Origin: Gemmatimonadaceae bacterium
GTDB lineage: Bacteria > Gemmatimonadota > Gemmatimonadetes > Gemmatimonadales > Gemmatimonadaceae
DNA length: 40,498 nt
Reading direction: 5' to 3'
NCBI GenBank assembly: GCA_036508735.1
Contig: DATCGU010000410.1
Span: 1-40,498, forward strand
Part shown: piece by piece, positions 2,399 through 39,912 of the stretch
Position numbering within the stretch: the first letter of the stretch is position 1
Layout of the letters: each line of letters opens with the position of its first letter
Position numbers and translations under genes: made by a program
The notes under the pieces: model-generated
What the model was told of the DNA's origin: nothing
What the model saw: the letters and a program-made list of their open reading frames with translations, nothing else
Databases searched by the model: none

Positions 2399-2899
2399 GT
2401 GATTCCGATGCCGTTGATGCGCAGGAAACCAGCCCGAGCCAAGCGGTCTTCGACGCCGTCCAAGTCATCGACGCATCGCCGTTCCAGTTCCGATCGACAA
2501 AGTCTCATCAAGCGAGTCCTTGCTGGCCTCGCTCCCTATGTGCCGGAGGGCACACTTAAGATCGACGAGACGGGGATGATCGTGGTTGGAGTGGATGGCG
2601 TTCCCCTGGGAATCCAGGTGGAAGAAGAGCCGCCCGTGGTAAGGGTCCTCGGTACTGTGTGCTCCGAGGTGCCGTTCAGCGAGGATCTCTGTGCGTGGCT
2701 TAACGAAGTCAACGCAAACCGTTTACGCATCGGCTATGCGTATTGGAGGGATGACGAGATCCGATACGCCATCGAGGATATCGCTGTTCCGTTCACCATG
2801 GAACACGTTCTCGATGCCCTCGCGGCAGCTTCGGACATGGTACCAGCCTTGGCCCGAGACGCAGGACTCTGGTTTCCTGCACCGATGGTGATGGCGTAG
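2399..2899 (+). CDS. YbjN-like (putative sensory-transduction/chaperone-like fold) protein; start uncertain
   Basis: The C-terminal ~125 aa (LKIDETGMIVVGVDGVPLGIQVEEEPPVVRVLGTV...LNEVNANRLRIGYAYWRDDEIRYAIEDI) resembles the YbjN family. The first ~35 codons are R/S-rich and probably not translated. There is no canonical start codon just upstream of the conserved part. Confidence 0.45.
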   Translation: MIPMPLMRRKPARAKRSSTPSKSSTHRRSSSDRQSLIKRVLAGLAPYVPEGTLKIDETGMIVVGVDGVPLGIQVEEEPPVVRVLGTVCSEVPFSEDLCAWLNEVNANRLRIGYAYWRDDEIRYAIEDIAVPFTMEHVLDALAAASDMVPALARDAGLWFPAPMVMA

Positions 2900-2977
2900 G
2901 ATACAACTGAGCCGAAGTGACAACGCACGGGGTGCCGACTTGATCAACCGGCGCCCCGTCTGTCATTTGCGGCTGTA

Positions 2978-3121
2978 TCTCACGGAGACCGGAGGAGCAC
3001 GAAATTCACAGAGAACGACAAAACACTTGAGGGGTATGGCGGAGAGTCTTGTCCGCCACAGCCCCTTTAGAGTTGTTGCCGTTCTTCGTGCTCTCCGTGC
3101 TGCTCCGGTCTCCGTGAGAGA
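2978..3121. repeat. full copy of the ~143-bp palindromic intergenic element (copy 1)
   Basis: Termini are TCTCACGGAGACCGGAGG ... CTCCGGTCTCCGTGAGAGA, with a central hairpin GGCGGAGAG-TCTT-GTCCGCC. It lies between convergent genes, and the helicase stop is 9 nt from the right end. Confidence 0.85.
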
Positions 3122-3130
3122 AGCACTGAT

Positions 3131-4810
<1,680 letters not shown>

Positions 4811-5169
4811 CCTGAAATCTAACCCACATTTTGGGTCATCTCTTGGGATTTGTCGCATACCGTCCGCCAAGCAGGCACCAACTTGTCCCCACCGACACGC
4901 GTGATCCGGTGGCCGAGACGCGGGCTGGGTAGTGAACCCGAGACGGGCCAGAGGGTGCCACTTTCCAAGATCAGTGTCTCCCGCCGAAGCACCCAGCGTG
5001 TTCTTGTCGTAGTTCACCACGAAGCCGAGCGTACTTCCGAACGTGATGCCCGTATGAACACCGAAGCCGGACCAAGAGCCCAGCTTCTCGGCCGCATCCC
5101 GTAAGTGAACGATGCGCCAGTCGTCTGCTCGCCGACATACAAGCCTGTTTGCGTGGGCAATGGTGACCT

Positions 5170-5784
5170 TCAGGCAGGCCGGTTGATCCCCGTCAGCAGC
5201 CAGCTGAATCCGCGGGCTTCGTATGGCGCTACCAGTTCCGGGGTCATTCCAAAGATGCCCAGTGGAACGCCTGCCCCGCGGCATGCCGACTCAATGCTGG
5301 CGACGGCCTCGAGATACGCCGGATCATCGAACCGCTCCGGAGTCCCCAAGCTTCGCGTCAGGTCGTGTGGACCAATGAGCACCCATTCGATGCCCGGTGT
5401 TCGCACGATGGCCTCGATATTCCGCACCGCTTGGGCGGACTCTGCCTGTACCACCACCTTGGCTCGCGACCATCGGGAGGTGCGAACGCAGCGCACTGAT
5501 TCCTCCGCCTGCGCCGGGGTATCGACGTTGGGGATGATGACGCCTGTCGCCCCTGCTTCCAACGCATGGTTGATCAGCGCGCTGTCGAGCGTGCGAACGC
5601 GCGCATAGCACGGAAGGCGGTCACCGATGATCGTCAGCATGGTCGTCATTTCGGACAGCCCGACGCTCGCGTGCTCGCCATCGAGCATCAGCCAGTCGAG
5701 TCCGGAAGCGGCAATGCGGTCAAGGAGCGTCCTGTCAGTTGTCCTGATGACGGTCGCGTGCCTGGGCATCAAGGGTACCAGCAA
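5170..5784 (-). CDS. HpcH/HpaI aldolase/citrate-lyase family protein, unusually short
   Basis: Family-like blocks are GLDWLMLDGEH, GATGVIIPNV, VVVQAES..AV.NIEAI and IGPHDLTRSLG. It is about 50 aa shorter than typical members, at the N-terminus and around the substrate-binding Arg loop. Confidence 0.6.
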   Translation of the reverse strand: MLVPLMPRHATVIRTTDRTLLDRIAASGLDWLMLDGEHASVGLSEMTTMLTIIGDRLPCYARVRTLDSALINHALEAGATGVIIPNVDTPAQAEESVRCVRTSRWSRAKVVVQAESAQAVRNIEAIVRTPGIEWVLIGPHDLTRSLGTPERFDDPAYLEAVASIESACRGAGVPLGIFGMTPELVAPYEARGFSWLLTGINRPA

Positions 5785-5909: not shown

Positions 5910-6902
5910 CTACGAAGGCATCGCCTTCTTCTTGTCTGCCATCATGCTGACCATGGCCCCCACAAGCAGAATTCCCGCGACAAGCCCCAGCATCCAGAAG
6001 TTCAGGCTCTCGCCAATCCACGCCTGCAGCCAACGCACCACCAGCATCTTCAGTCCGACGAGAGTCAGGATCATGCTCAGCGAGACCTTCAGGTAGCGGA
6101 ACTTCTCGATCAGGCCGGCCAGTCCGAAGTACAGCGACCGCAGGCACAGGATGGCAAACACGTTCGAGGTGAACACGAGGAACGGATCGGCCGTAATCGC
6201 GAAGATCGCCGGAATGCTGTCCACCGCGAAGATCAGGTCCGTCGTCTCTACGAGGACCAGGGCGACCATCAGTGGTGTCAGGAAGGTCCGGCCGTTCAGG
6301 TTCACCAGGAAGCTCGTACCGTGAAACTCCTCGGTGATCGGGAACCGCTTGCGCAGCTGGGCCATCACCCAGCTTTCACCGGGGGCATCGTCCTCATCCT
6401 TGGTCAGCAGCATCCGCACGCCGGTGTACACCAGGAACGCGCCGAACAGGTAGAGTACCCAGTGGTAGCGCGCCACCAATGCGGCCCCAACACCGATCAT
6501 TGCTCCGCGCATTGCCAGCGCACCTAGTATCCCCCAGAAGAGCACCCGGTGTTGCAGCACAAGGGGGATTCGAAGGTGCCCAAACAGCAGCGCGATCACG
6601 AACACGTTGTCCATGCTGAGCGACAGCTCAATCACATAGCCGGTGAGGAACTTCACCGCCGCGAGTCGCCCGTCATTCTCCTGGTTGTCCACTGCGTCCA
6701 GGTGGGTCCCCAATCCCTCCCAGCCGTTGTGGTACGCCACCCACACGAACGCCGTGAACATCAGCGCCAGCACGACGACGCCCGTGGTGAAGCCAAGCGC
6801 TTCCTTCATGGACGGCGTACGCGCCTTCTTGTTGAAGACGCCCAGGTCCAGCGCCAACAGCATGAAGACGAACAGCAGGAAGCCGCCCCACATCCAGATC
6901 AC
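5910..6902 (-). CDS. TerC/Alx family integral membrane protein
   Basis: TerC signature FLTGYVIELSLSMDNVFVIALLF plus a second DSIPAIFAIT repeat, and the protein is polytopic. Start set at GTG 6902-6900, which overlaps the upstream stop as GTGA. Confidence 0.85.
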   Translation of the reverse strand: MIWMWGGFLLFVFMLLALDLGVFNKKARTPSMKEALGFTTGVVVLALMFTAFVWVAYHNGWEGLGTHLDAVDNQENDGRLAAVKFLTGYVIELSLSMDNVFVIALLFGHLRIPLVLQHRVLFWGILGALAMRGAMIGVGAALVARYHWVLYLFGAFLVYTGVRMLLTKDEDDAPGESWVMAQLRKRFPITEEFHGTSFLVNLNGRTFLTPLMVALVLVETTDLIFAVDSIPAIFAITADPFLVFTSNVFAILCLRSLYFGLAGLIEKFRYLKVSLSMILTLVGLKMLVVRWLQAWIGESLNFWMLGLVAGILLVGAMVSMMADKKKAMPS

Positions 6903-7252
6903 TTGTCGGCCTCCGTCCACGCCTTCCAGGCGGCCACCGCCTCACCGATCGTCAGTTGCTGTTGCCAGCGCACCAGGGGCATGGCCAGCAACAACGGCTC
7001 ATCCACCAGCTTCTCCATCCAATGAGCGTCATCCAACCGGGCAGCACCCAAGCCCAGGTCCGCGTAGCGGCGGCTTGTCTTGTCGATCAGCGCGGTCACG
7101 CCGAACTTTTGTGCAAAGCGCTGCAGTTCACCCTTGCTCGCTGCGCGTTCCTTGAGATCCACGAAGTGCACCTTCACCCGACGCTCGGCGAAGAACCGCT
7201 GGGCTGAGCGGGTGGCTGGAGACTTGGCGATGCCGAAGATCTGGACTTCCAA
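6899..7252 (-). CDS. ArsC/Spx/YffB-family protein lacking the usual N-terminal Cys motif
   Basis: IFGIAKSPATRSAQRFFAERRVKVHFVDL aligns with the ArsC-family N-terminus, but Ser replaces the catalytic or redox Cys. Start is TTG at 7252 (MEVQIFGI), giving 117 aa, a typical family length. Confidence 0.7.
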   Translation of the reverse strand: MEVQIFGIAKSPATRSAQRFFAERRVKVHFVDLKERAASKGELQRFAQKFGVTALIDKTSRRYADLGLGAARLDDAHWMEKLVDEPLLLAMPLVRWQQQLTIGEAVAAWKAWTEADK

Positions 7253-10776: not shown

Positions 10777-10795
10777 CCCGCCGGTATTGAGGCAG

Positions 10796-10810
10796 TCTCT
10801 CACGGAGACC
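10796..10810. repeat. 15-nt fragment of the palindromic-element left terminus
   Basis: TCTCTCACGGAGACC is identical to the element's left end and then diverges. It sits between convergent stops (10776 and 10824). Confidence 0.35.
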
Positions 10811-10823
10811 TCCACCGACCAGT

Positions 10824-11138
10824 TCACTTGGGCGCCGAATTCGTGAAGTGTTCGCGCTCCGCCATGGCGTACACCAGCAGCCAATCGGGCCAGTTGCCGC
10901 TCAAGTCGAAGAAGTCGTCAAAATAGACCAGTCCGCGCCCCTCGAGTTCGGCGATGACCGTTGCCAAAGCCTCGGAATCGTACACCGGGCCAATTGCCAC
11001 GAGGTCGCCTTCCACCCGAAACTCATCGGCCGTCAGGTGCAGGGCTACGTCGAAGTCGGCGCGCGCCAGCGCGTGCTGCTCAAACGCACGCTTGCGGATG
11101 AGAAGCGTTGGGGAGGTGTGGGCAATGGGAATCGGCAT
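10824..11138 (-). CDS. hypothetical small acidic protein (104 aa)
   Basis: Clean ORF with non-repetitive composition, divergent from mnmG. No family recognised. Confidence 0.5.
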
Positions 11139-11233
11139 GCGCTGGTCCGTCAGAGGGATGCCGCCAATCTAATGCCCTCAGCCACGCACACGATGCCGCT
11201 TCGCTGCCGGCGACCGTACCTTTCGTAACTCCC

Positions 11234-13198
11234 ATGCGCACCGAATCCTCCTTCGACGTCATCGTGATCGGCGGTGGCCATGCCGGCACCGAAGCGGCGG
11301 TGGTTGCCGCGCGCCTCGGCTGCCGCGTGGCACTCATCACGAGCGCGCTCGAGACCATCGGACAGATGTCGTGCAACCCGGCAATCGGCGGCGTGGCCAA
11401 GGGCACCGTGGTACGGGAGGTCGATGCACTCGGCGGTGTCATGGGCCGCGCGACTGATCACGCGACCATCCAATTCCGGATGCTCAACCGCAGCAAGGGG
11501 CCAGCGGTCTGGGCTCCCCGCGCCCAGTGCGATCGAGGCCTCTATCGTCGCGCGGTGCGGTCGCTGGTCGAGTCACATCCCAACGTCACCGCCATCCAGG
11601 GCACCGTTTCCCGTCTCATGCTCGACCACGGACGCGTAATCGGCGTGGAGTCCCTCGACCAGCGTCACTTCAATGCACGTGCCGTCGTGGTAACCACAGG
11701 AACGTTTGGGCGCGGCAGGATCCACATCGGCACCACCACGCAGCTGGCCGGCGGTCGTGCCGGTGAGTCGTCCACTACGCACCTGGCCGAACAGCTCGCC
11801 GAGGTTGGCCTCGAAGTGCGCCGTTTCAAGACCGGCACTCCACCACGCATTGATGGCCGTAGTGTGGATTATTCGAGGTGTACGCCACAGTACAGCGAGC
11901 TCGAGGATTTCAACTATGCCTGGTCGCACTTCGAGACGACAGACGATAGACGACAGACGATAGGGAGCGGACGGCGTGCAACGTACAGCGTAGAGCGTAC
12001 AGCTTCTTTTCCGCTGCAGCAGTTGCCCTGCTGGATCACCTATGCCGGCGCAGCTGCCAAGGCGGTCGTGACATCCAACATCGACCTCTCTGCCATGTAC
12101 GGCGGGTCCATCGACGCGCGGGGGCCCCGTTACTGCCCGAGCATAGAGGATAAAGTCGTTCGCTTTGCTGGCGCCGAACGACATCAGGTGTTTCTCGAGC
12201 CCGAGGGGCTCGATACAACCGAACTGTACGTCAACGGTCTCTCCACGTCACTGCCGGCCGAGGTACAGCTCCAGATGCTGCGCGCGGTTCCGGGACTCGA
12301 GCAGGTACAGATGACGCGCGCGGGGTATGCCATCGAGTATGACTACTACCCGCCTACACAGCTCGACCTAACGCTTGAAGTTCGCCAAGTTCCCGGCCTG
12401 TACCTCGCAGGTCAGATCAACGGCACCACCGGCTACGAGGAAGCTGCGGGGCAGGGGCTTGTCGCCGGACTCAATGCGGCACTCGCCGTGCAGGAGCGCG
12501 ATCCGCTGGCCTTTGGCCGGAACACTTCCTATGTAGGCGTCCTCGTGGACGACATCGTCACCCGCGGCGTGGACGAACCGTATCGCCTCTTCACCTCGCG
12601 TTCCGAGTTCCGCCTCACGGTCCGACAGGACAACGCCCTGCGCCGGCTCGCGCCTCTTGGCATCGCACTCGGCCTGTACAGCGACGACGAGCGCCGTTCC
12701 ATCGACACCCGACTGAACGACGAAGACCGCGCGGCGCGCATGGCCGCCGATACCAGCGTACGCCCCGAGCAGGTGCGGGCCTTGCTTGAACGCTCCGGAT
12801 CGGCACAGCTCGTTCATGCCGTGAAGGTCATCGAGCTTGCCCGCCGGCAGGACGTTGCCCTCGCCGACCTGTTCATCGCCGTCGAACTGCACGATGCGCC
12901 AATCGGTGAAGCCGTGATCACCACCGAGCTCGAGATCAAGTACGCGGGATATTTCACGCGGGAGCGCCGGGCCGCGGAGCGGCTTCGCCGCATGGGTGAC
13001 TTCGCGCTCGCCTTGGAGCTTCCGTACGGTGAGATGATATCCCTGTCCCTTGAAGCGCGGCAGAAGCTCGCCCAGCGTCGCCCGGCATCCCTCGCTATGG
13101 CGTCGCGCCTGTCGGGCGTCAGCCCGGCCGACCTGCAGAACCTCGTGCTCGAGGTTGAGCGGCGGCGGCGCGGTGCGGCTTCAGCGAGCGTCGCGTGA
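11234..13198 (+). CDS. mnmG: tRNA uridine-5-carboxymethylaminomethyl modification enzyme MnmG (GidA)
   Basis: [19 protein letters not shown] motif, [11 protein letters not shown], and the [16 protein letters not shown] block. Start is ATG at 11234 ([11 protein letters not shown]). Confidence 0.95.
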
Positions 13199-16318: not shown

Positions 16319-16405
16319 TTTTGGCTAGCATTTACAGTGACGGGAGGCCAATATTCGGCCTCTCGTTCTCTTTCCAGTTGGACCCTTGGTGGAGCCGTAC
16401 GTATC

Positions 16406-17191
16406 TTGGCGCGAATCATTGCCATCGCAAACCAGAAGGGTGGGGTCGGGAAGACGACCACCGCCGTGAACTTGGCAGCCAGTCTTGCCGCGGCTGAACA
16501 GCGCGTGCTGCTGGTGGACGGCGATCCACAGGGAAACGCCACTAGCGGCATTGGACTTTCCCGTGACGAGCTTCGCCTGACCACCTACGATGTGCTCCTG
16601 GAGCCATCCACCATCGATCATGCCGTGCTGCACGAGGTCCAGTTCCGCTTCTTGGACGTGCTCCCGGCAACGTCGGACTTGGCCGGTGCAGAGGTCGAAC
16701 TTGTCGGGAAGGAAGATCGCGAACTTTCCATGCGACGAGCGCTCGAGCGGGTGACTAGCACGTACGACTTTGTGCTGATCGATTGCCCGCCATCGCTTGG
16801 CCTGGTGACCCTCAACATGCTGGCCGCCGCAGATTCACTGCTCATTCCCCTGCAGTGCGAATACTACGCGCTCGAAGGATTGAGCCAGTTGCTCAATACG
16901 GTGAACCTCGTACAGCAGGGCGTGAACCCGTCGCTGGGCATTGACGGCGTGCTCCTTACCATGTACGACGCGCGACTGAACTTGTCGCGCCAGGTAGCGG
17001 CTGATGCGCGCGAGTATTTCGGCGCCAAGGTCTTTCAGAGCATCGTTCCCAGAAATGTCAGGCTCGCAGAAGCGCCTAGCTTTGGCAAACCAATCATCCT
17101 GTATGATCTCGCCTCGGTTGGCGCACAGGCTTATATGAGCGTGGCGAAGGAGCTAATTGACCGGACGGTCTCTGGGGCCGCAGCACGCTAG
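16406..17191 (+). CDS. parA: chromosome partitioning ATPase ParA/Soj
   Basis: Deviant Walker [15 protein letters not shown] at 16406 gives the typical [14 protein letters not shown]-terminus; the track start at 16337 adds 23 atypical residues. Confidence 0.9.
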
Positions 17192-24437: not shown

Positions 24438-24556
24438 AACTGCGGAACTCCCGATTGAACGGATAACGCGGATACACACGGATACAGCATTAAGGAACCC
24501 TGATGGCAGTATCCGTGGTTATCGGTGTGATCCGTTGAATCGGGAGTTCTGCAGTT
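24438..24556. repeat. 119-bp nested inverted repeat (long hairpin) between convergent genes
   Basis: Outer 27-nt arms AACTGCGGAACTCCCGATTGAACGGAT / ATCCGTTGAATCGGGAGTTCTGCAGTT have 2 mismatches. The inner perfect 9-bp stem is CACGGATAC/GTATCCGTG. Each arm carries three CGGATA (TATCCG-like) modules. Confidence 0.7.
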
Positions 24557-29600: not shown

Positions 29601-29660
29601 CTCTCACGGAGACCGGCGCTCTCACGGAGACCGGCGGAGTGCGCTCCGTGAGAGACAAGC
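29601..29660. repeat. internally deleted copy of the palindromic element with an 18-nt tandem duplication
   Basis: CTCTCACGGAGACCGGCG occurs twice in tandem (29601-29618 and 29619-29636). It is followed by GAGTGCGCTCCGTGAGAGACAAGCAC. The terminal 10 nt pair as TCTCACGGAG/CTCCGTGAGA. Confidence 0.8.
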
Positions 29661-32076: not shown

Positions 32077-32081
32077 GATCG

Positions 32082-32152
32082 TCTCGCACGGAGACCGGAG
32101 GAGCACCGAGGCCACGAAGAACGACAAACCCTTGAGGGGGTGTGGCGGAAGA
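32082..32152. repeat. left-arm half copy of the palindromic element
   Basis: TCTCGCACGGAGACCGGAGGAGCACCGAGGCCACGAAGAACGACAAACCCTTGAGGGGGTGTGGCGGAAG. The right arm is absent, and the histidine kinase stop follows at 32163. Confidence 0.8.
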
Positions 32153-32162
32153 AACCGTGGGG

Positions 32163-33290: not shown

Positions 33291-33845
33291 ATGGATTCCC
33301 ACGCCAAGCTCATCGAAATGCTCGCCACGCGCTCCGCGCGCCGCGGCACGTTCACGCTCGCCTCCGGCCGTGTGTCGGACCTGTACATCGATGCCCGCCT
33401 CACCACGATGAGTCCCGATGGCCTGGCGACGATCGGCCAACTGGGACTCGCGCGCATTCGCGCCCGCGGATGGACGCCGGATGCCGTGGGCGGACTGACG
33501 CTCGGCGCCGATCCCGTATCGTACGCCATCGCCCATGCCAGCGCACTCGCCAAAGCTCCCGTGCGTGCCTTTACCGTGCGGAAGGAAACGAAAACCCACG
33601 GAACAGGCAAGCTCATCGAGGGGCCCTTCTATGCCGGCGACCGGGTGGTCGTGATCGAGGACGTGATCACCACGGGCGGCTCGGCGCTCAAGGCCGTCGA
33701 CGTCATACGCGTTGCCGGGGGCACGGTACTGGGCGTGCTCGCCGTCGTCGACCGGGAGGAAGGCGGGCGCCAAGCGCTGGAAGCGGCGGGGCTGCCGGTC
33801 GAGATACTTGCCGGCTTGGCCGAGATTGTGGCGAACATGCGATAG
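33291..33845 (+). CDS. pyrE: orotate phosphoribosyltransferase
   Basis: PRPP-binding motif VVVIEDVITTGGS and the typical PyrE N-terminus FTLASGRVSDLYID. Confidence 0.95.
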   Translation: MDSHAKLIEMLATRSARRGTFTLASGRVSDLYIDARLTTMSPDGLATIGQLGLARIRARGWTPDAVGGLTLGADPVSYAIAHASALAKAPVRAFTVRKETKTHGTGKLIEGPFYAGDRVVVIEDVITTGGSALKAVDVIRVAGGTVLGVLAVVDREEGGRQALEAAGLPVEILAGLAEIVANMR

Positions 33846-33852
33846 CTCTGTC

Positions 33853-33995
33853 TCTCACGGAGACCGGAGGGGCACGGAGGGCGCGGAGAAGGGCAAAACA
33901 CTTCAAGGGGGCGTGGCGGAGAGTACGGTCCGCCACACCCCCTTGTTCACAGCTTCCTTCGCGTTCCTCCGCTCCGCTCCGGTCTCCGTGAGAGA
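33853..33995. repeat. full copy of the ~143-bp palindromic element (copy 2)
   Basis: Same termini as copy 1, with the central hairpin GTGGCGGAGAG-TACG-GTCCGCCAC. It starts 7 nt after the pyrE stop and ends 13 nt before the GxxExxY gene stop. Confidence 0.85.
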
Positions 33996-34008
33996 CCCCC
34001 ACTACCCA

Positions 34009-34401
34009 TCAGCACACGAATCGCCGTACCCCGCGGGCCAGCAAGGCAACGTTGAAGTTGATCAGCAGCCCGCGCCCGAAACCGCCGGTCCTGATGTAGG
34101 TGAGCACCTGGGCACAGTGCACCGGTTTCACGGCCTCGAGTGACTTGAGTTCAACGACGAGCTGGTCCTCGACCAGCAGGTCAATGCGCAGGGACTCGTC
34201 GAGCAGGGCCCCCTTGTAGAAAACGGGAAGCCGGACTTCGCTGGCGAACGCAATGCCGCGAGCCAGAAGTTCCTGCTCCATGGCGCCCTGATAGAGCGAC
34301 TCCAGCAGTCCCGGGCCTAGTTGCCGGTGCACCTCGATGGCAGCACCAATTACCCGCTCCGAGTGTGTGTCGGGTGCAACCTTCAGGTCGAATCCAGGCA
34401 T
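34009..34401 (-). CDS. GxxExxY protein (PD-(D/E)XK nuclease-like small protein)
   Basis: VIGAAIEVHRQLGPGLLESLYQGAMEQEL carries the GxxExxY motif. IDLLVEDQLVVELK is a D...ExK motif, and GLLINFN is near the C-terminus. Start is ATG at 34401. Confidence 0.85.
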   Translation of the reverse strand: MPGFDLKVAPDTHSERVIGAAIEVHRQLGPGLLESLYQGAMEQELLARGIAFASEVRLPVFYKGALLDESLRIDLLVEDQLVVELKSLEAVKPVHCAQVLTYIRTGGFGRGLLINFNVALLARGVRRFVC

Positions 34402-34443: not shown

Positions 34444-34502
34444 TCTCTCAGTGTCTTTGCAGTTCTTCGTGCACACCGTGGCCCTGCGGTCTTCGTGAGA
34501 GA
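34444..34502. repeat. internally deleted copy of the palindromic element (left tip + right arm)
   Basis: TCTCTCAGTGTC...TTGCAGTTCTTCGTGCACACCGTGGCCCTGCGGTCTTCGTGAGAGA. The right flank GACAAGTCAC resembles that of the 29601 copy (GACAAGCAC). Confidence 0.7.
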
Positions 34503-34515
34503 CAAGTCACAAATG

Positions 34516-35560: not shown

Positions 35561-35952
35561 GGACGTCGGTCGGCCGGACGGTCGCGTCGCGGGAGTGGCA
35601 TTTGCCCGCACCGAGGAAAGTCCGGGCTCCATGGGCACGCTGCCAGGTAACGCCTGGGCACGCTTGGGCACTTCGCCAGACGTGACGGACAGTGCAACAG
35701 AAAGGACACCGCCTTGGTGCAAACCGAGGTAAGGGTGAAATGGTGGGGTAAGAGCCCACCGCGCGCATGGCAACATGCGTGGCAAGGCAAACCCCAGCGG
35801 GAGCAAGGCCAAATAGGCGGCGAGCAGCAGTCCTCTGCGATCAAGACGCCGCGGGTTGGCTGCATGAGTCCGTGGGCGATCACGGGCCGAGAGAAATGAC
35901 CGTCCGGAACTTCGGTTCCGACAGAACCCGGCTTACAGGCCGGCCGTCGTCC
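35561..35952 (+). ncRNA. rnpB: RNase P RNA, bacterial type A
   Basis: Universal blocks are GAGGAAAGTCCGGGCTCC, CAGTGCAACAGAAAGGACACCGCC, GGTAAGGGTGAAATGGTGGGGTAAGAGCCCACCGC, AGCAAGGCCAAATAGG and ACAGAACCCGGCTTAC. P1 pairs 35561-35575 with 35938-35952. P2 pairs GACGGTC with GACCGTC. Confidence 0.9.
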
Positions 35953-35954
35953 CG

Positions 35955-35996
35955 CCCCGCTGTCGCCTCGTGCGGCAGCGGGGTGTCTGGTTTCTC
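35955..35996 (+). terminator. intrinsic terminator following rnpB
   Basis: 12-bp GC-rich stem (CCCCGCTGTCGC / GCGGCAGCGGGG, with one G-U pair), a 5-nt loop, then TGTCTGGTTTCTC. Confidence 0.7.
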
Positions 35997-36950: not shown

Positions 36951-36965
36951 GCTGAGATCGTAATC

Positions 36966-37108
36966 TCTCACGAAGACCGGAGAATCACAGAGGACACAGA
37001 GAACAGCCAAATTCTTAAGAGGGTGTGGCGGAGAAAGCTGTCCGCCACACCCCCTCAAAAGTTGTTCGTTTTTCGTGCTCTTCGTGCCCCTCCGGTCTTC
37101 GTGAGAGA
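36966..37108. repeat. full copy of the ~143-bp palindromic element (copy 3)
   Basis: TCTCACGAAGACCGGAG ... CTCCGGTCTTCGTGAGAGA with the central hairpin GTGGCGGAGAA-AGCT-GTCCGCCAC. It lies 15 nt after the lipoprotein stop and 10 nt before the dnaN stop. Confidence 0.85.
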
Positions 37109-37118
37109 CCCCCGGAAC

Positions 37119-38228
37119 TCAGTCCACTAACCGCAACGGCATCAGCAGGCAGAGATACTTGGCCGGATCGTTCCAGCCCTCGGGTTCGATGGTGGCCGCG
37201 CGCTCGGGCGCCTTGAAGCTCACCTTCACCTCGTCCGTCGGCAGGAACCGGAGAATCTCGAGCAGGTAGGCCGCGTTGAAGCCGATCTCCAGGGGATCCC
37301 CGTTGTAGCGGATGGCCATCTCGTCCTGCGCCTCGCCCAGGTCCGGCGTGGAGACGTTGAACTTGAGCATCCCCGCATTGAACGACAGGCGAATGCGGTG
37401 CGTCTGGTCCGACGCCACTACCGACATGCGCTTGAGCGCGCTGATGAACGCCGCCTTGTCGATGATGACAATCTTGTCGTTGTCCTTGGGGATGACCTGG
37501 TCGTAGCTGGGGTACGGCCCTTCGATGAGGCGTGTGTACACCGCGGTGAAGGGCGAACGAAAACCGAGATGGTTCTCGCCCTGCGCCACTTCGAGCTCCT
37601 CTTCTGGCGGAAAGAGCTTGCTGATCTGCTGTAGCGCCTTGGGCGGAATGATCAAATCGGCATTCTCGCCGGTGCCGTGCACGGGCACTTCCATCTTGGC
37701 CAAGCGATGACCGTTGGTGGCCACCATCCGCATGACGTCGGCCCGCAATTCCCAGAGCACGCCATTCAGGATCGGGCGGCTTTCCTCGGTGGATGCGGCA
37801 AACGCCGTGTGGGCAATGAGCTTCTGCAGCTCGCCCGACAGGATGCGAATGCTCTTCTCGAACGGAACTGCCGGAAAACTGGGAAACTCCGACTTGGGCA
37901 GCCCAAGGAGCTTGAACCGCGCACGACCGCATTCGAGGGTGATTCGCTGGTCGCCAGACGACGAGATCTTCACCGGCGCCGCGGGCAACTCACGCGCAAT
38001 CTCGGTGAGTTTCTTGGCCGGGATGGTAATTGCACCAGAGGTTTCGACGTCGGCCGTGACTTCGGTGGACACCGCGATATCAAGATCGGTGCCCGACAGG
38101 CGAATGCCCTTGTCGGTGGTTTGCACGAGAAGGTTGGCCAGAACAGGCAGTGTCGTCTTTGACGGCACCGCCGATGCCACGGCGCTCAACCCTTCCTGCA
38201 GCTTCTCTCGCGAGATAGTAAACCGCAT
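37119..38228 (-). CDS. dnaN: DNA polymerase III beta sliding clamp
   Basis: Typical DnaN N-terminus MRFTISREKLQEGL....V...TTLPVLANLL and a length of 369 aa. Start is ATG at 38228. Confidence 0.95.
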   Translation of the reverse strand: MRFTISREKLQEGLSAVASAVPSKTTLPVLANLLVQTTDKGIRLSGTDLDIAVSTEVTADVETSGAITIPAKKLTEIARELPAAPVKISSSGDQRITLECGRARFKLLGLPKSEFPSFPAVPFEKSIRILSGELQKLIAHTAFAASTEESRPILNGVLWELRADVMRMVATNGHRLAKMEVPVHGTGENADLIIPPKALQQISKLFPPEEELEVAQGENHLGFRSPFTAVYTRLIEGPYPSYDQVIPKDNDKIVIIDKAAFISALKRMSVVASDQTHRIRLSFNAGMLKFNVSTPDLGEAQDEMAIRYNGDPLEIGFNAAYLLEILRFLPTDEVKVSFKAPERAATIEPEGWNDPAKYLCLLMPLRLVD

Positions 38229-38253
38229 TCCAACCCTGTGTGTGAAGGTCACG

Positions 38254-38460: not shown

Positions 38461-39852
38461 TCACCACTGGGAATGACGCACAGTTTCCCGCACCTTTTCC
38501 ACACGCCCCCGGAACACCGCATCCTCCCGGGACATCTCGGCAACCCGCTCAATCGAGTGGATGACGGTCGAGTGATCCCGACCCCCAAACGCCGACCCGA
38601 TCTCCACCAACTGGAGCCCGTGAATCTCCCGGGTAAGGTACATGGCCACCTGGCGCGGAACGGTGAGCACCTTGGTGCGGGTCTTGGAGGTCAGCCCGTC
38701 CACGGTGACCCCCCATTCGGCCGCCACCACCTGCTGGATCTGGTGCACCCGTTCCTGGCGGGTGGATCGCACCGGCACCGATTCGGACGAACGCAACTTG
38801 TCGCGCAGGGCCTCGCGGGCCAGCTCCACGGTCACCACCCGGTGCTTGAGCGACGAAAAGGCCAGCAGCTTGATGATGGAACCCTCGAGCTCGCGCACGT
38901 TGGCCTGCACGTGATCGGCGATGAAGTGCAGTACCTCGTCGGGAATGGTGTGCTCGAGATGGTCCATCTGCGCCTTGCGCCGCAGGATGGCAATGCGATG
39001 CTCGAGGTCGGGCGGCGAGACGTCGGCCACCATGCCCCACTCGAATCGGCTCTTCAGGCGGTCCTCGAGGCGCGGAATCTCCGATGGCCCACGGTCTGAC
39101 GTGAGCACGATCTGGCGCCCGGCTTCGTACAGCGCGTTGAACGTGTGAAAGAATTCTTCCTGAGTCTGCTGCTTGCCGGCGAGCACGTGCACGTCGTCCA
39201 CGAGCAGCAAGTCGGACTGCCGATAACGACGCTTAAACTCGTTCATCGACCGCTTTTCGATACTGTTGATCACATCATTCAGGAACTGCTCGGCGGTGAT
39301 GTAAGTAACCCGCATGGACGGGTCGCGCTGCAGGATGCGGTGGGCAATGGCCTGCATGAGGTGGGTCTTGCCCAACCCGGTTGCCCCATAAATGAAGAGC
39401 GGGTTGTACGACTTTCCAGGCGCCTCGGCGACCGCCGCCGCGGCCGCCGCGGCGAGCTCGTTTGACTTGCCGATGACGAAATGGTCAAAGGTATACCGGT
39501 CATTCAACTGGCTTAAAACAATCGTGTTATCGGCCTTTAGTGGCTCTATACTGGCTTCATTTTGAGGGACAAACAGGTCCATTTGAGGGCGTGTACGCCG
39601 CTCTTCCTGGACCTTGAGGACGACTTTGAGGGGATGGCCGAGGCAGATTGGGCCCAGGTTTTCCAGGTAGGAGGCGTGTTTGGAGGAGACCCAGTCGACG
39701 GCGAATTGGTCGGGAGCGGCGAGGGTGAGTGTTTCCCCGTCGAAGTCCAGGGCAGCCAATGGGGCGAGCCACTGGTCGGTGGTATGGGCTGGCAGGTCGT
39801 TGCGGACGCGGTCGAGGAGGCGGGACCAGGCGTCGCTGGCAGACAATGGCAT
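38461..39852 (-). CDS. dnaA: chromosomal replication initiator protein DnaA
   Basis: AAA+ Walker A GATGLGKTHL, Walker B LLLVDDVH, and the C-terminal DNA-binding domain with the FGGRDHSTV signature. Start is ATG at 39852 (MPLSASDAWSRLL). Confidence 0.95.
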   Translation of the reverse strand: MPLSASDAWSRLLDRVRNDLPAHTTDQWLAPLAALDFDGETLTLAAPDQFAVDWVSSKHASYLENLGPICLGHPLKVVLKVQEERRTRPQMDLFVPQNEASIEPLKADNTIVLSQLNDRYTFDHFVIGKSNELAAAAAAAVAEAPGKSYNPLFIYGATGLGKTHLMQAIAHRILQRDPSMRVTYITAEQFLNDVINSIEKRSMNEFKRRYRQSDLLLVDDVHVLAGKQQTQEEFFHTFNALYEAGRQIVLTSDRGPSEIPRLEDRLKSRFEWGMVADVSPPDLEHRIAILRRKAQMDHLEHTIPDEVLHFIADHVQANVRELEGSIIKLLAFSSLKHRVVTVELAREALRDKLRSSESVPVRSTRQERVHQIQQVVAAEWGVTVDGLTSKTRTKVLTVPRQVAMYLTREIHGLQLVEIGSAFGGRDHSTVIHSIERVAEMSREDAVFRGRVEKVRETVRHSQW

Positions 39853-39859
39853 TAGTGCG

Positions 39860-39912
39860 ATCGGGTGTGGAAAAGCGAAGGGGGACGATGCTACCAATCG
39901 GGTGTGGAAAAG
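39860..39912. promoter_or_regulatory. two 16-bp direct repeats, each carrying the DnaA-box variant TGTGGAAAA
   Basis: ATCGGGTGTGGAAAAG occurs at 39860-39875 and again at 39897-39912 (37-bp period). Both are in the dnaA-rpmH intergenic region, just upstream of the dnaA start. Confidence 0.6.

Follow-up and report, generated by a model that had tools for sequence, protein, structure and literature searches.

A family of long palindromes that lie between genes in a Gemmatimonadaceae bacterium probably consists of ORF-less, non-autonomous derivatives of selfish elements, which are bounded by terminal inverted repeats and carry a gene for a GxxExxY nuclease. The stretch of DNA in which we characterised these palindromes, hereafter the window, is 40,498 nt long and comes from the replication-origin region of a chromosome with 64% G+C; its genes include dnaA, dnaN, RNase P RNA, gidA, parA, polA, deaD and csp, and no transposase was found among them. 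Two observations are central to this proposal. A GxxExxY gene within the window is bracketed by one full palindrome and one further arm, and the heptamer arrays that form the arms of the palindromes are shared with GxxExxY gene-carrying units elsewhere. Derivation of the window palindromes from GxxExxY units is strongly supported.

Three full palindromes of ~145-148 nt are present in the window, in agreement with the original prediction: copy 1 (2975-3122) and copy 3 (36963-37111), both ORF-less, and copy 2 (33849-33998), which contributes its outer arm (33849-33897) to the gene-carrying unit as the distal inverted repeat; none is assigned to a strand. All three have TCTC(TC)ACGRAGACCGGAG ... 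CTCCGGTCTYCGTGAGAGA as their ends and GTGGCGGA-N8-TCCGCCAC as a central hairpin, and 11 occurrences of the core 11-mer CACGRAGACCG were counted in the window, compared with an expectation of 0.11. Each full copy folds into a single long hairpin, as had been predicted, and does so on either strand, with an RNA minimum free energy (MFE) of -83 to -111 kcal/mol. Measured against 200 dinucleotide shuffles, these folds have z-scores of -11.1 to -13.3, and none of the shuffles was as stable. The DeaD helicase gene (3131-5284, minus strand) has its stop codon 8-12 nt away from copy 1, copy 2 lies 10-13 nt past the stop codon of the GxxExxY gene, and copy 3 is located between the stop codons of a hypothetical gene (36950) and dnaN (37119). 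The three copies had been proposed to share one orientation; the GAG/GAA asymmetry at their centres is real, but there is no consistent polarity at the level of the family. Palindromic repeats of this kind also create spurious ORFs and C-terminal extensions in annotation.

The four shorter forms that had been predicted as truncated copies are also present, again without an assigned strand. At 29601-29660, abutting the stop codon of a GWxTD gene (29662), is an internally deleted copy of which the termini alone are left, the left terminal unit being tandemly duplicated; its orthologue in locus L010 (6158-6306) is a full copy. Between convergent kinase and histidine-kinase genes, a left arm and part of the centre remain at 32080-32158; the orthologous spacers, of 16 nt in L010 and 31 nt in L029, are empty. 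A solitary 16-nt terminal hairpin, GTCTCTCACGGAGACC (GTCTC-TCACG-GAGAC), is found at 10795-10811, 20 nt past the stop codon of a dienelactone hydrolase gene. The fourth form, at 34444-34504, is a genuine single right arm, but it is the upstream inverted repeat of the GxxExxY gene rather than a truncated copy: in the sense orientation of the gene it reads TCTCTCACGAAGACCGCAGGGCCACGGTGTGCACGAAG..., with the ATG 42 nt further on, and the orthologous position in L010 is occupied by a full palindrome. We also identified a second, different palindrome of like architecture between convergent genes (24438-24556, no strand assigned). Its arms consist of ATTGAAC plus CGGATA / CGCGGATAC / CACGGATAC, phased at ~10 nt, and its fold has a z-score of -12.6. 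The ATTGAAC end also occurs in a Gemmatirosa element.

We searched 185,579 species genomes for an exact pattern in which both termini lie 97-127 nt apart. This identified 32 loci, all but one of them from Gemmatimonadota MAGs: MAG H51-bin165_1 accounts for 24, a second MAG for 4 and an 'uncultured Gemmatimonas' MAG for 3. The remaining locus is a 1.5-kb contig binned as Dehalococcoidaceae. In this one scan, then, the window-type family is confined to Gemmatimonadota. A hidden Markov model (HMM) built from 37 copies detected further full and partial copies in the scanned loci. The repeats break assemblies, and many homologues are on contigs of 1-2 kb. Synteny with the window is found in three of the scan loci. 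Copy 1, at the deaD stop codon, has a counterpart at the orthologous site in L022, and the copy 3 site is also occupied in L033, L036 and L037. Among the 37 copies, from five genomes, the nearest stop codon is a median of 16.5 nt away, which extends the placement near stop codons originally described for the window. These copies lie between tandem (22), convergent (14) and divergent (1) genes; all spacers of the same loci comprise 93 tandem, 37 convergent and 30 divergent. The description of the palindromes as a dispersed, REP/MITE-like intergenic family at gene 3' ends holds. The family had not been recognised as a described one, and neither Rfam nor the literature provided a match. With Rfam 15 at gathering thresholds, RNase P alone passes in the window, with no family for the palindromes; E-value mode returns plant miRNA-precursor hairpin models alone, all sub-threshold (46 bits vs 168). 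In the literature, the motif strings occur solely as unrelated primers, the REP surveys consulted do not mention Gemmatimonadota, and none of the papers listed connects this phylum with REPINs, RAYTs or MITEs.

The intact GxxExxY gene of the window (34009-34401, minus strand) encodes a 130-aa protein of the PD-(D/E)XK nuclease family (PF13366, PDDEXK_3), with E = 1e-38 for both Pfam PF13366 and TIGR04256. Both the catalytic D...ExK residues and the GxxExxY residues are kept. The AF2 model of the protein has a pLDDT of 91.3; its closest solved folds, all distant (TM ~0.4-0.5), are lambda exonuclease, Cas4 SSO0001 and Hjc resolvase, and I-Bth0305I is a weak structural neighbour. We detected no match to the nuclease in a PDB sequence search, PADLOC or PHROGs. 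The function of the PF13366/TIGR04256 family is given as 'unknown' (PMC3424549), and none of the three papers found to contain 'GxxExxY' deals with repeats. The gene is bracketed by copy 2 on one side and the arm at 34444-34504 on the other, with 82% complementarity between the outermost arms (33849-33897 and 34456-34504). This arrangement suggests the gene product as a candidate cognate protein of the repeats.

Full palindromes flank the GxxExxY gene on both sides in L010, L033, L036 and L037, and a related gene on a Gemmatirosa kalamazoonensis megaplasmid is likewise flanked by full palindromes. In both L033 and L037, elements are dense near the gene (5 within 8.4 kb), so the presence of palindromes on either side of it is, taken alone, weak evidence in those genomes. 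In the L029 MAG, the gene is absent from the locus, where one full copy and a fragment remain, and the copies are the most divergent that we observed (0.667, n=3); this gives weak support to our explanation. Across Gemmatimonadaceae the gene is apparently single-copy, and its synteny (dnaN-hyp-RNaseP-AraC-gene-PRTase-HisK-kinase) is kept in at least 5 genomes. We conclude that the gene is vertically inherited in this family, and we reject the idea that it is recently mobile cargo here. Elements lie 25-40 nt upstream of its start codon, between co-directional genes.

Each arm of a palindrome consists of three or four heptamers, C[A/G]C[A/G][G/A]AG, spaced at 8-9 nt. The window arms have a 9-nt period (CACGGAGA / CCGGAGGAG / CACGRAGGN / CRCRGAGAA) and contain the heptamers CACGGAG / CCGGAG / CACGRAG / CRCRGAG. 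One defining feature of the class, as we delimit it, is an arm with at least three heptamers C[AG]CN[AG]AG at a spacing of 8-9 nt that read inward from the end, and the window copies possess it. At the same intergenic sites, the more distant Gemmatimonadaceae of loci L033-L038 have ~150-nt palindromes of another subfamily, with ends GGCTTTTTCAYCACGGAG, four CACGGAG units per arm and a different central hairpin. The ends of window-type copies form GGTCTC-TCACG-GAGACC hairpins, while the whole element forms one hairpin; this terminal hairpin is found in the window lineage alone, and the sister subfamilies, which end TTTTTCAYCACGGAG, do not have it. The existence of a sister subfamily with other ends and another centre indicates that it is the phased heptamer array that the superfamily conserves, and not the terminus of window type. 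A terminal unit of 16-18 nt is often tandemly duplicated, at times symmetrically on both sides. We considered whether the complementary flanks in L005, L007 and L010 are pre-existing hairpin targets; they are mostly extra nested or duplicated terminal units. Neither end of the 37-copy consensus, which ends GGGGTCTCTCACGGAGACCGGAG..., carries a GTAG or CGTC tag.

The same arrays surround PF13366 genes in other lineages. Three distant PF13366 genes have unrelated contexts (rpsA/accA; an aldehyde dehydrogenase gene/efp; after ubiA), and inverted repeats of the same heptamers, e.g. CAGTTCACCACGGAGTGCCGGAGGGACACGGAGAGGCACGGAG, bracket the gene in all three. We scanned metagenomes with a 20-protein alignment, which yielded 80 loci, and analysed 76 loci with usable flanks, consisting of metagenome loci together with L039, L041 and L043. 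A bracketing repeat was called significant if its score exceeded that of the best of 20 shuffles by more than 3 points. By this measure, a significant inverted repeat brackets the gene in 66 of the 76 loci, which are relatives at 47-67% identity to one query and not a random sample of PF13366; the other 10 have no significant bracketing repeat. Across the 76 loci, the mean number of heptamers is 2.91 upstream on the plus strand and 3.13 downstream on the minus strand, compared with 0.72 and 0.82 on the respective opposite strands and a background of 0.44, and 61 loci have at least two inward-facing heptamers on both sides. Taking the arrays as the starting point, 147 of 169 phased arrays (at least three heptamers) are within 330 nt of the gene. 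The others are mostly ORF-less palindromes or clusters, and no array was found to bracket a transposase in ~0.23 Mb. Gene-carrying units are ~440-700 nt long, with usually three heptamers per arm at a spacing of 8-9 nt and an outer boundary that is sharp at (T)TTCA|CC. Cultured organisms provide two examples: in Bacteroides finegoldii the unit is positioned between radA and the gene for an FAD-dependent protein, and in Sphingomonas parapaucimobilis it lies within the fabD-fabG spacer. The PF13366 gene is essentially chromosomal: it was absent from all 50,697 phage records, and it turned up on just 7 plasmids out of 72,556 and on a single contig among 2.9 million viral ones; this near-absence leads us to reject carriage of the nuclease gene by phages or plasmids.

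These gene-flanking repeats can be aligned with the arms of the window copies, with the consensus TTCACCACGGAG-N-CACGGAGGACACGGAG. The outer end (T)TTCACC is not found in the window lineage, where copies end TCTCTCAC, and sister Gemmatimonadaceae end TTTTTCAYCAC; we read the window terminus as a lineage variant. The initial REP/MITE-like reading was correct in describing a dispersed family but missed its apparent origin in the terminal inverted repeats of a GxxExxY unit.

Several observations suggest mobility and continuing copying. Dispersed gene-carrying units are 76-89% identical at the nucleotide level, yet their flanks have no homology, even by tblastx, and the homology between units ends at the repeats. 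Some pairs of copies at different loci of MAG H51 are 91-92% identical, against a mean of 73%, and the Gemmatirosa megaplasmids each have at least 39-40 matching places for their own 91-nt palindrome, which has no match on other plasmids among 72,556. Copies from one genome have an identity of 0.82, compared with 0.762 for same-site copies of different genomes (the window vs H51, and among the L033, L036 and L037 genomes) and 0.768 for copies at different sites. Since similarity is higher among the copies of one genome than between orthologous sites, we conclude that there is ongoing copying or conversion, i.e. concerted evolution or turnover. We reject the alternative that orthologous copies are slowly diverging vertical relics, because same-site pairs are no more alike than others. 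Ordinary recombination between repeats could also give within-genome homogenisation. No target-site duplication is visible in 40 ORF-less copies, and in 56 gene-carrying units direct repeats of 2-8 nt are not in excess, whatever the offset. The only recurrent neighbours in 33 loci are syntenic orthologues and aldehyde dehydrogenase paralogues, with no recurrent transposase or other gene. No insertion polymorphism was seen between the near-identical contigs L033/L034/L035 or L037/L038.

We propose that the heptamer arrays are putative DNA binding sites of the nuclease, and that the resident nuclease would act in trans on gene-less copies. It would cut at or near the arrays, and repair or recombination would then copy, replace and homogenise copies; if the cut is not staggered, no target-site duplication would arise. 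Selection against promoter disruption could leave copies at 3' ends, and effects on transcript ends, if any, would be secondary. We infer that the nuclease binds the arrays and drives copying and homogenisation because the association of gene and repeats spans phyla, because the repeats co-vary with lineage and are homogenised within genomes, and because no other candidate emerged from the loci covered. To our knowledge, no PD-(D/E)XK nuclease is known to move an element alone, and the syntenic, apparently single-copy gene behaves like a resident gene in Gemmatimonadaceae, which counts against this explanation. The broader form of the proposal is more tentative, and we hold it at somewhat less than an even chance: PF13366 proteins may be the nucleases of an unrecognised, phylum-spanning class of selfish elements that have inverted arrays of phased heptamers as their boundaries and produce no target-site duplication, with a single resident, vertically inherited copy sustaining dozens to hundreds of palindromes in Gemmatimonadaceae through copying or gene conversion that the nuclease triggers. 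The palindromes and their nuclease would then constitute a second REPIN/RAYT-like system of a replicator plus a domesticated enzyme, with a different enzyme fold.

If the palindromes were instead RNA hairpins selected by the host, as bidirectional terminators or 3' stabilisers of mRNA, compensatory and G·U-compatible changes should be in excess on the strand that is transcribed. The original prediction favoured such a role from the placement of the copies, and also described arms that differ between copies yet remain self-complementary within a copy, and a compensatory change between copies. An excess of complementarity to the own arm does exist but is marginal. The interior arms match their own copy at 0.712 and the arms of other copies at 0.694, the own arm is the best partner in just 3 of 40 copies, and chimeric hairpins are only slightly less stable than the real ones (-54.7 vs -57.3 kcal/mol; permutation p ~0.02-0.03). 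We therefore reject copy-specific compensatory evolution of the arms as anything more than marginal. The variable R/Y pair is GC in 18 cases, AU in 8, AC in 6 and GU in 5, such that the AC and GU mismatches are about equally common. In the repeats of 60 gene-carrying units, with the transcript strand set by gene orientation, 57 mismatches are compatible with sense G·U pairing and 70 are of A·C type, and transversions (135) are as frequent as transitions; with no G·U signature, we also reject RNA-level pairing of the two repeats of a unit. We found neither a family-wide polarity nor one strand that folds better. A terminator scan identified 5 terminator-like sites, against 5.7 expected from shuffles. 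The centre of copy 2 is the only one among the three full copies to be flagged (minus strand; a hairpin followed by GTGTTTTG), and the outer stems end GAGAGACCCC with no T-run. Weak compensation, together with the lack of G·U bias and of polarity, leaves an RNA-structure role unsupported. We conclude from the mismatch and polarity results that palindromy reflects inverted arrays of DNA motifs from a palindromic master copy, and not selection on each RNA helix.

Hence, we consider a terminator or stabiliser function to be unlikely, despite a very stable fold on both strands, the short distance to stop codons, the scarcity of copies in divergent spacers (1 of 37, vs 30 of 160 for all spacers), the occupation of orthologous sites across genera and the terminator-like centre of copy 2. 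Besides the RNA-level results, it is opposed by elements that lie between co-directional genes and immediately precede the GxxExxY ATG, a position at which termination would shut the gene off, by decayed remnants where relatives hold full copies, and by copy sequences that follow the genome rather than the site. Distinctly unlikely, in our view, is that the palindromes are MITEs or mobile insertion cassettes, with a conventional (e.g. DDE) transposase recognising the heptamer repeats and GxxExxY as cargo. The terminal inverted repeats with sharp ends and the coexistence of gene-carrying and gene-less forms speak for such a model, and a lone PD-(D/E)XK nuclease is no known transposase. However, the lack of 2-8-nt target-site duplications in 56 units, the lack of any other gene recurring beside the elements in 33 loci and the placement of 147 of 169 arrays beside PF13366 genes, with none around a transposase in ~0.23 Mb, all argue against it, and the persistence of the gene-repeat pairing across phyla is unexpected for interchangeable cargo. 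It is very unlikely that the elements are REPIN-like, consisting of inverted REP hairpins (GGTCTC-TCACG-GAGACC) served by a RAYT encoded elsewhere, which would be flanked by TCTCTCACGGAGACC units, with GxxExxY as a bystander. In favour of this are termini that form small hairpins, the occurrence of the family in single form (10795-10811), as doublets and as tandem 'stutters' of the 16-18-nt terminal unit, the absence of target-site duplication, copies at 3' intergenic positions and long-lived vertical inheritance at fixed sites, as is described for REPIN-RAYT systems. Against it, the GTAG/CGTC tag is absent, the terminal hairpin is limited to the window lineage and missing from sister subfamilies, repeats homologous to the arms are found around PF13366 genes in several phyla, no Y1_Tnp domain was detected in the ~40 window ORFs scanned, and the gene that the repeats flank is a PF13366 gene. 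Each of these alternatives fails at least one test.

By analogy, the system resembles REPIN-RAYT and MITE-IS pairs in behaviour, without the defining features of either. REP sequences of the GTAG/CGTC superfamilies are 20-40-bp imperfect palindromes with a terminal GTAG or CGTC (Di Nocera 2013; PMC3733652), and REPIN-RAYT systems have been described previously (Bertels & Rainey 2011, PMC3116915; Nunvar 2010, PMC2817692). Like these, the elements studied here are high-copy, hairpin-forming, non-coding intergenic palindromes that lack target-site duplication, occur as singlets, doublets and clusters, and have lineage-specific repeat variants, and the associated single-copy, vertically inherited gene is itself flanked by repeats. 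Unlike REPIN-RAYT systems, the flanked gene encodes a 130-aa PD-(D/E)XK nuclease (PF13366) and not an HUH/Y1 transposase (PF01797), phased heptamer arrays take the place of a tagged 20-40-bp REP, and outside Gemmatimonadaceae the gene-carrying unit is dispersed in unrelated contexts. The likeness to MITE-IS pairs is that a short, non-autonomous, intergenic form corresponds to the two ends of a longer gene-carrying unit, with terminal inverted repeats that have a sharp boundary; IS231/MIC231 in Bacillus cereus is an example of a mobile insertion cassette. Here, in contrast, target-site duplication is absent, palindromy extends over almost the whole length of the ORF-less form, and the longer form encodes only the PF13366 nuclease and no recognisable transposase.

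Other small elements share some of these properties. ERIC/IRU, Correia, RUP and BOX elements are imperfect palindromes of 100-150 bp, intergenic or at 3' ends and co-transcribed with flanking genes. The elements described here are similar in size, imperfect palindromy, dispersal and intergenic and 3' location, but we detected no sequence similarity by the methods applied here, the phylum is different, and those families have no associated nuclease gene that the same repeats bracket. Homing endonuclease genes lack terminal inverted repeats and generate no ORF-less palindromic copies, and the insertion sites here are many and unrelated. In common with free-standing homing endonuclease genes, including those of PD-(D/E)XK type, there is a small nuclease gene between housekeeping genes and no transposase, and no target-site duplication would be left behind if spread occurred by cleavage and repair. 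The intervening sequence of Coxiella 23S rRNA, which carries a small ORF, S23p (PMC4990558), is similarly a selfish insertion of 400-700 nt with pairable inverted ends and one short ORF of unknown function; its insertion sites are within housekeeping transcription units, and it relies on read-through by the host. The units described here differ in being outside rRNA, in having heptamer-array ends with no G·U-type end pairing, and in carrying an ORF of a different family.

PF13366/TIGR04256 is a very large family with thousands of homologues, and in many phyla its genes are found dispersed among housekeeping genes. If our interpretation is correct, recognition and cleavage of heptamer arrays would be the first testable role for this family, and an enzyme that is neither HUH nor DDE would join the short list of those tied to dispersed bacterial repeats. 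The palindromes and their nuclease would also offer an independent system in which to address the long vertical persistence of REPIN-like populations.

The window covers the origin region of the chromosome, as shown by the presence of dnaA (38461-39897), dnaN (37119-38252), gidA/mnmG (11108-13198) and parA (16337-17191). Of its seven repeat pieces, six (29.6-37.1 kb) are grouped no more than 8 kb from dnaN. A class A bacterial RNase P RNA is encoded at 35566-35951 on the + strand (286 bits), with a terminator-like GC-rich hairpin 3' of it at 35953-35985. At L037, a locus from a more distant member of the Gemmatimonadaceae, an element separates RNase P from the gene that follows it, a position at which the window has none.

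The neighbourhood of copy 1 differs between the window and L022, a locus of a related MAG with window-type repeats. Two additional genes, encoding a DNA-3-methyladenine glycosylase-like protein and a 413-aa phosphodiesterase-like protein, adjoin the copy 1 orthologue in L022 (4646-6681, versus 2960-2978 in the window) and are missing from the window. The two loci differ here by an indel, one edge of which lies at the element. We also observed a separate hairpin at 2925-2960 of the window, 3' of a TY-Chap1-like gene (ACGGGGTGCCG...CGGCGCCCCGT, then CTGTCATTTG). L022 also has a hairpin in the corresponding place (about 6705-6740). The window hairpin is likely a genuine terminator, distinct from the ~145-nt repeat.

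Repeat units are duplicated or clustered at several loci. At L010 (1620-2045), the final ~45 nt of the GxxExxY nuclease gene and the full palindrome are duplicated in tandem, and an 18-nt unit, CCGTGAGAGCCMRGAACA, comes next in three copies. Many copies show a 'stutter' of the terminal unit, including those at L017, where it is symmetrical, at L021, and at 29601-29639 in the window. The GxxExxY gene of the metagenomic locus L115 is flanked by 6 + 6 heptamer arrays (1664-2116 and 3957-4596); these are arranged in tandem with 66-nt spacing, forming a large repeat-unit cluster. In some units, the GxxExxY ORF itself extends into the downstream repeat (L041, 3405-3447; L127, about 940-975; protein P0080), such that the C-terminal tail, e.g. 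...SPLRALRDLRGETS, is a translated heptamer array. Spurious ORFs also arise from the repeats of the window, e.g. 33703-34002 (-).

A window-type element was found on a 1.5-kb contig (L012, CAYGHU010000276.1) of a MAG labelled Dehalococcoidaceae; this contig most likely belongs to a Gemmatimonadota genome and entered the MAG as a binning contaminant. At the end of the L036 contig, about 150 nt of near-pure C/G low-complexity sequence (4580-4731) directly abuts the element that lies downstream of the GxxExxY gene, and looks like an assembly artefact at the repeat. A single exact match to the 11-mer CACGGAGACCG occurs at 652-662 of the window, within a probable coding region (ORF 232-921, with no Pfam hit). 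Other features of the element are absent around this match, which could be a chance occurrence or an old remnant.

At L111, the GxxExxY gene lies between two 132-nt repeats (2292-2423 and 2883-3014), each with an internal hairpin that follows the heptamers. The loop region of this hairpin, GGCGGAGAGTAC, is a 12-mer identical to the centre of window copy 2, which hints at the source of the central hairpin in ORF-less copies.

A second palindrome of 119 nt lies between convergent genes at 24438-24556 of the window (z = -12.6). Its arm units (ATTGAAC + CGGATA / CGCGGATAC / CACGGATAC) have no sequence kinship to the ~145-nt repeats. We found relatives at L017 (about 7140-7180) and at L024 (about 2990-3090); in the latter, the order of the arms is reversed, tail-to-tail. 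The 119-nt palindrome probably belongs to the same class as the ~145-nt repeats, as a second subfamily.
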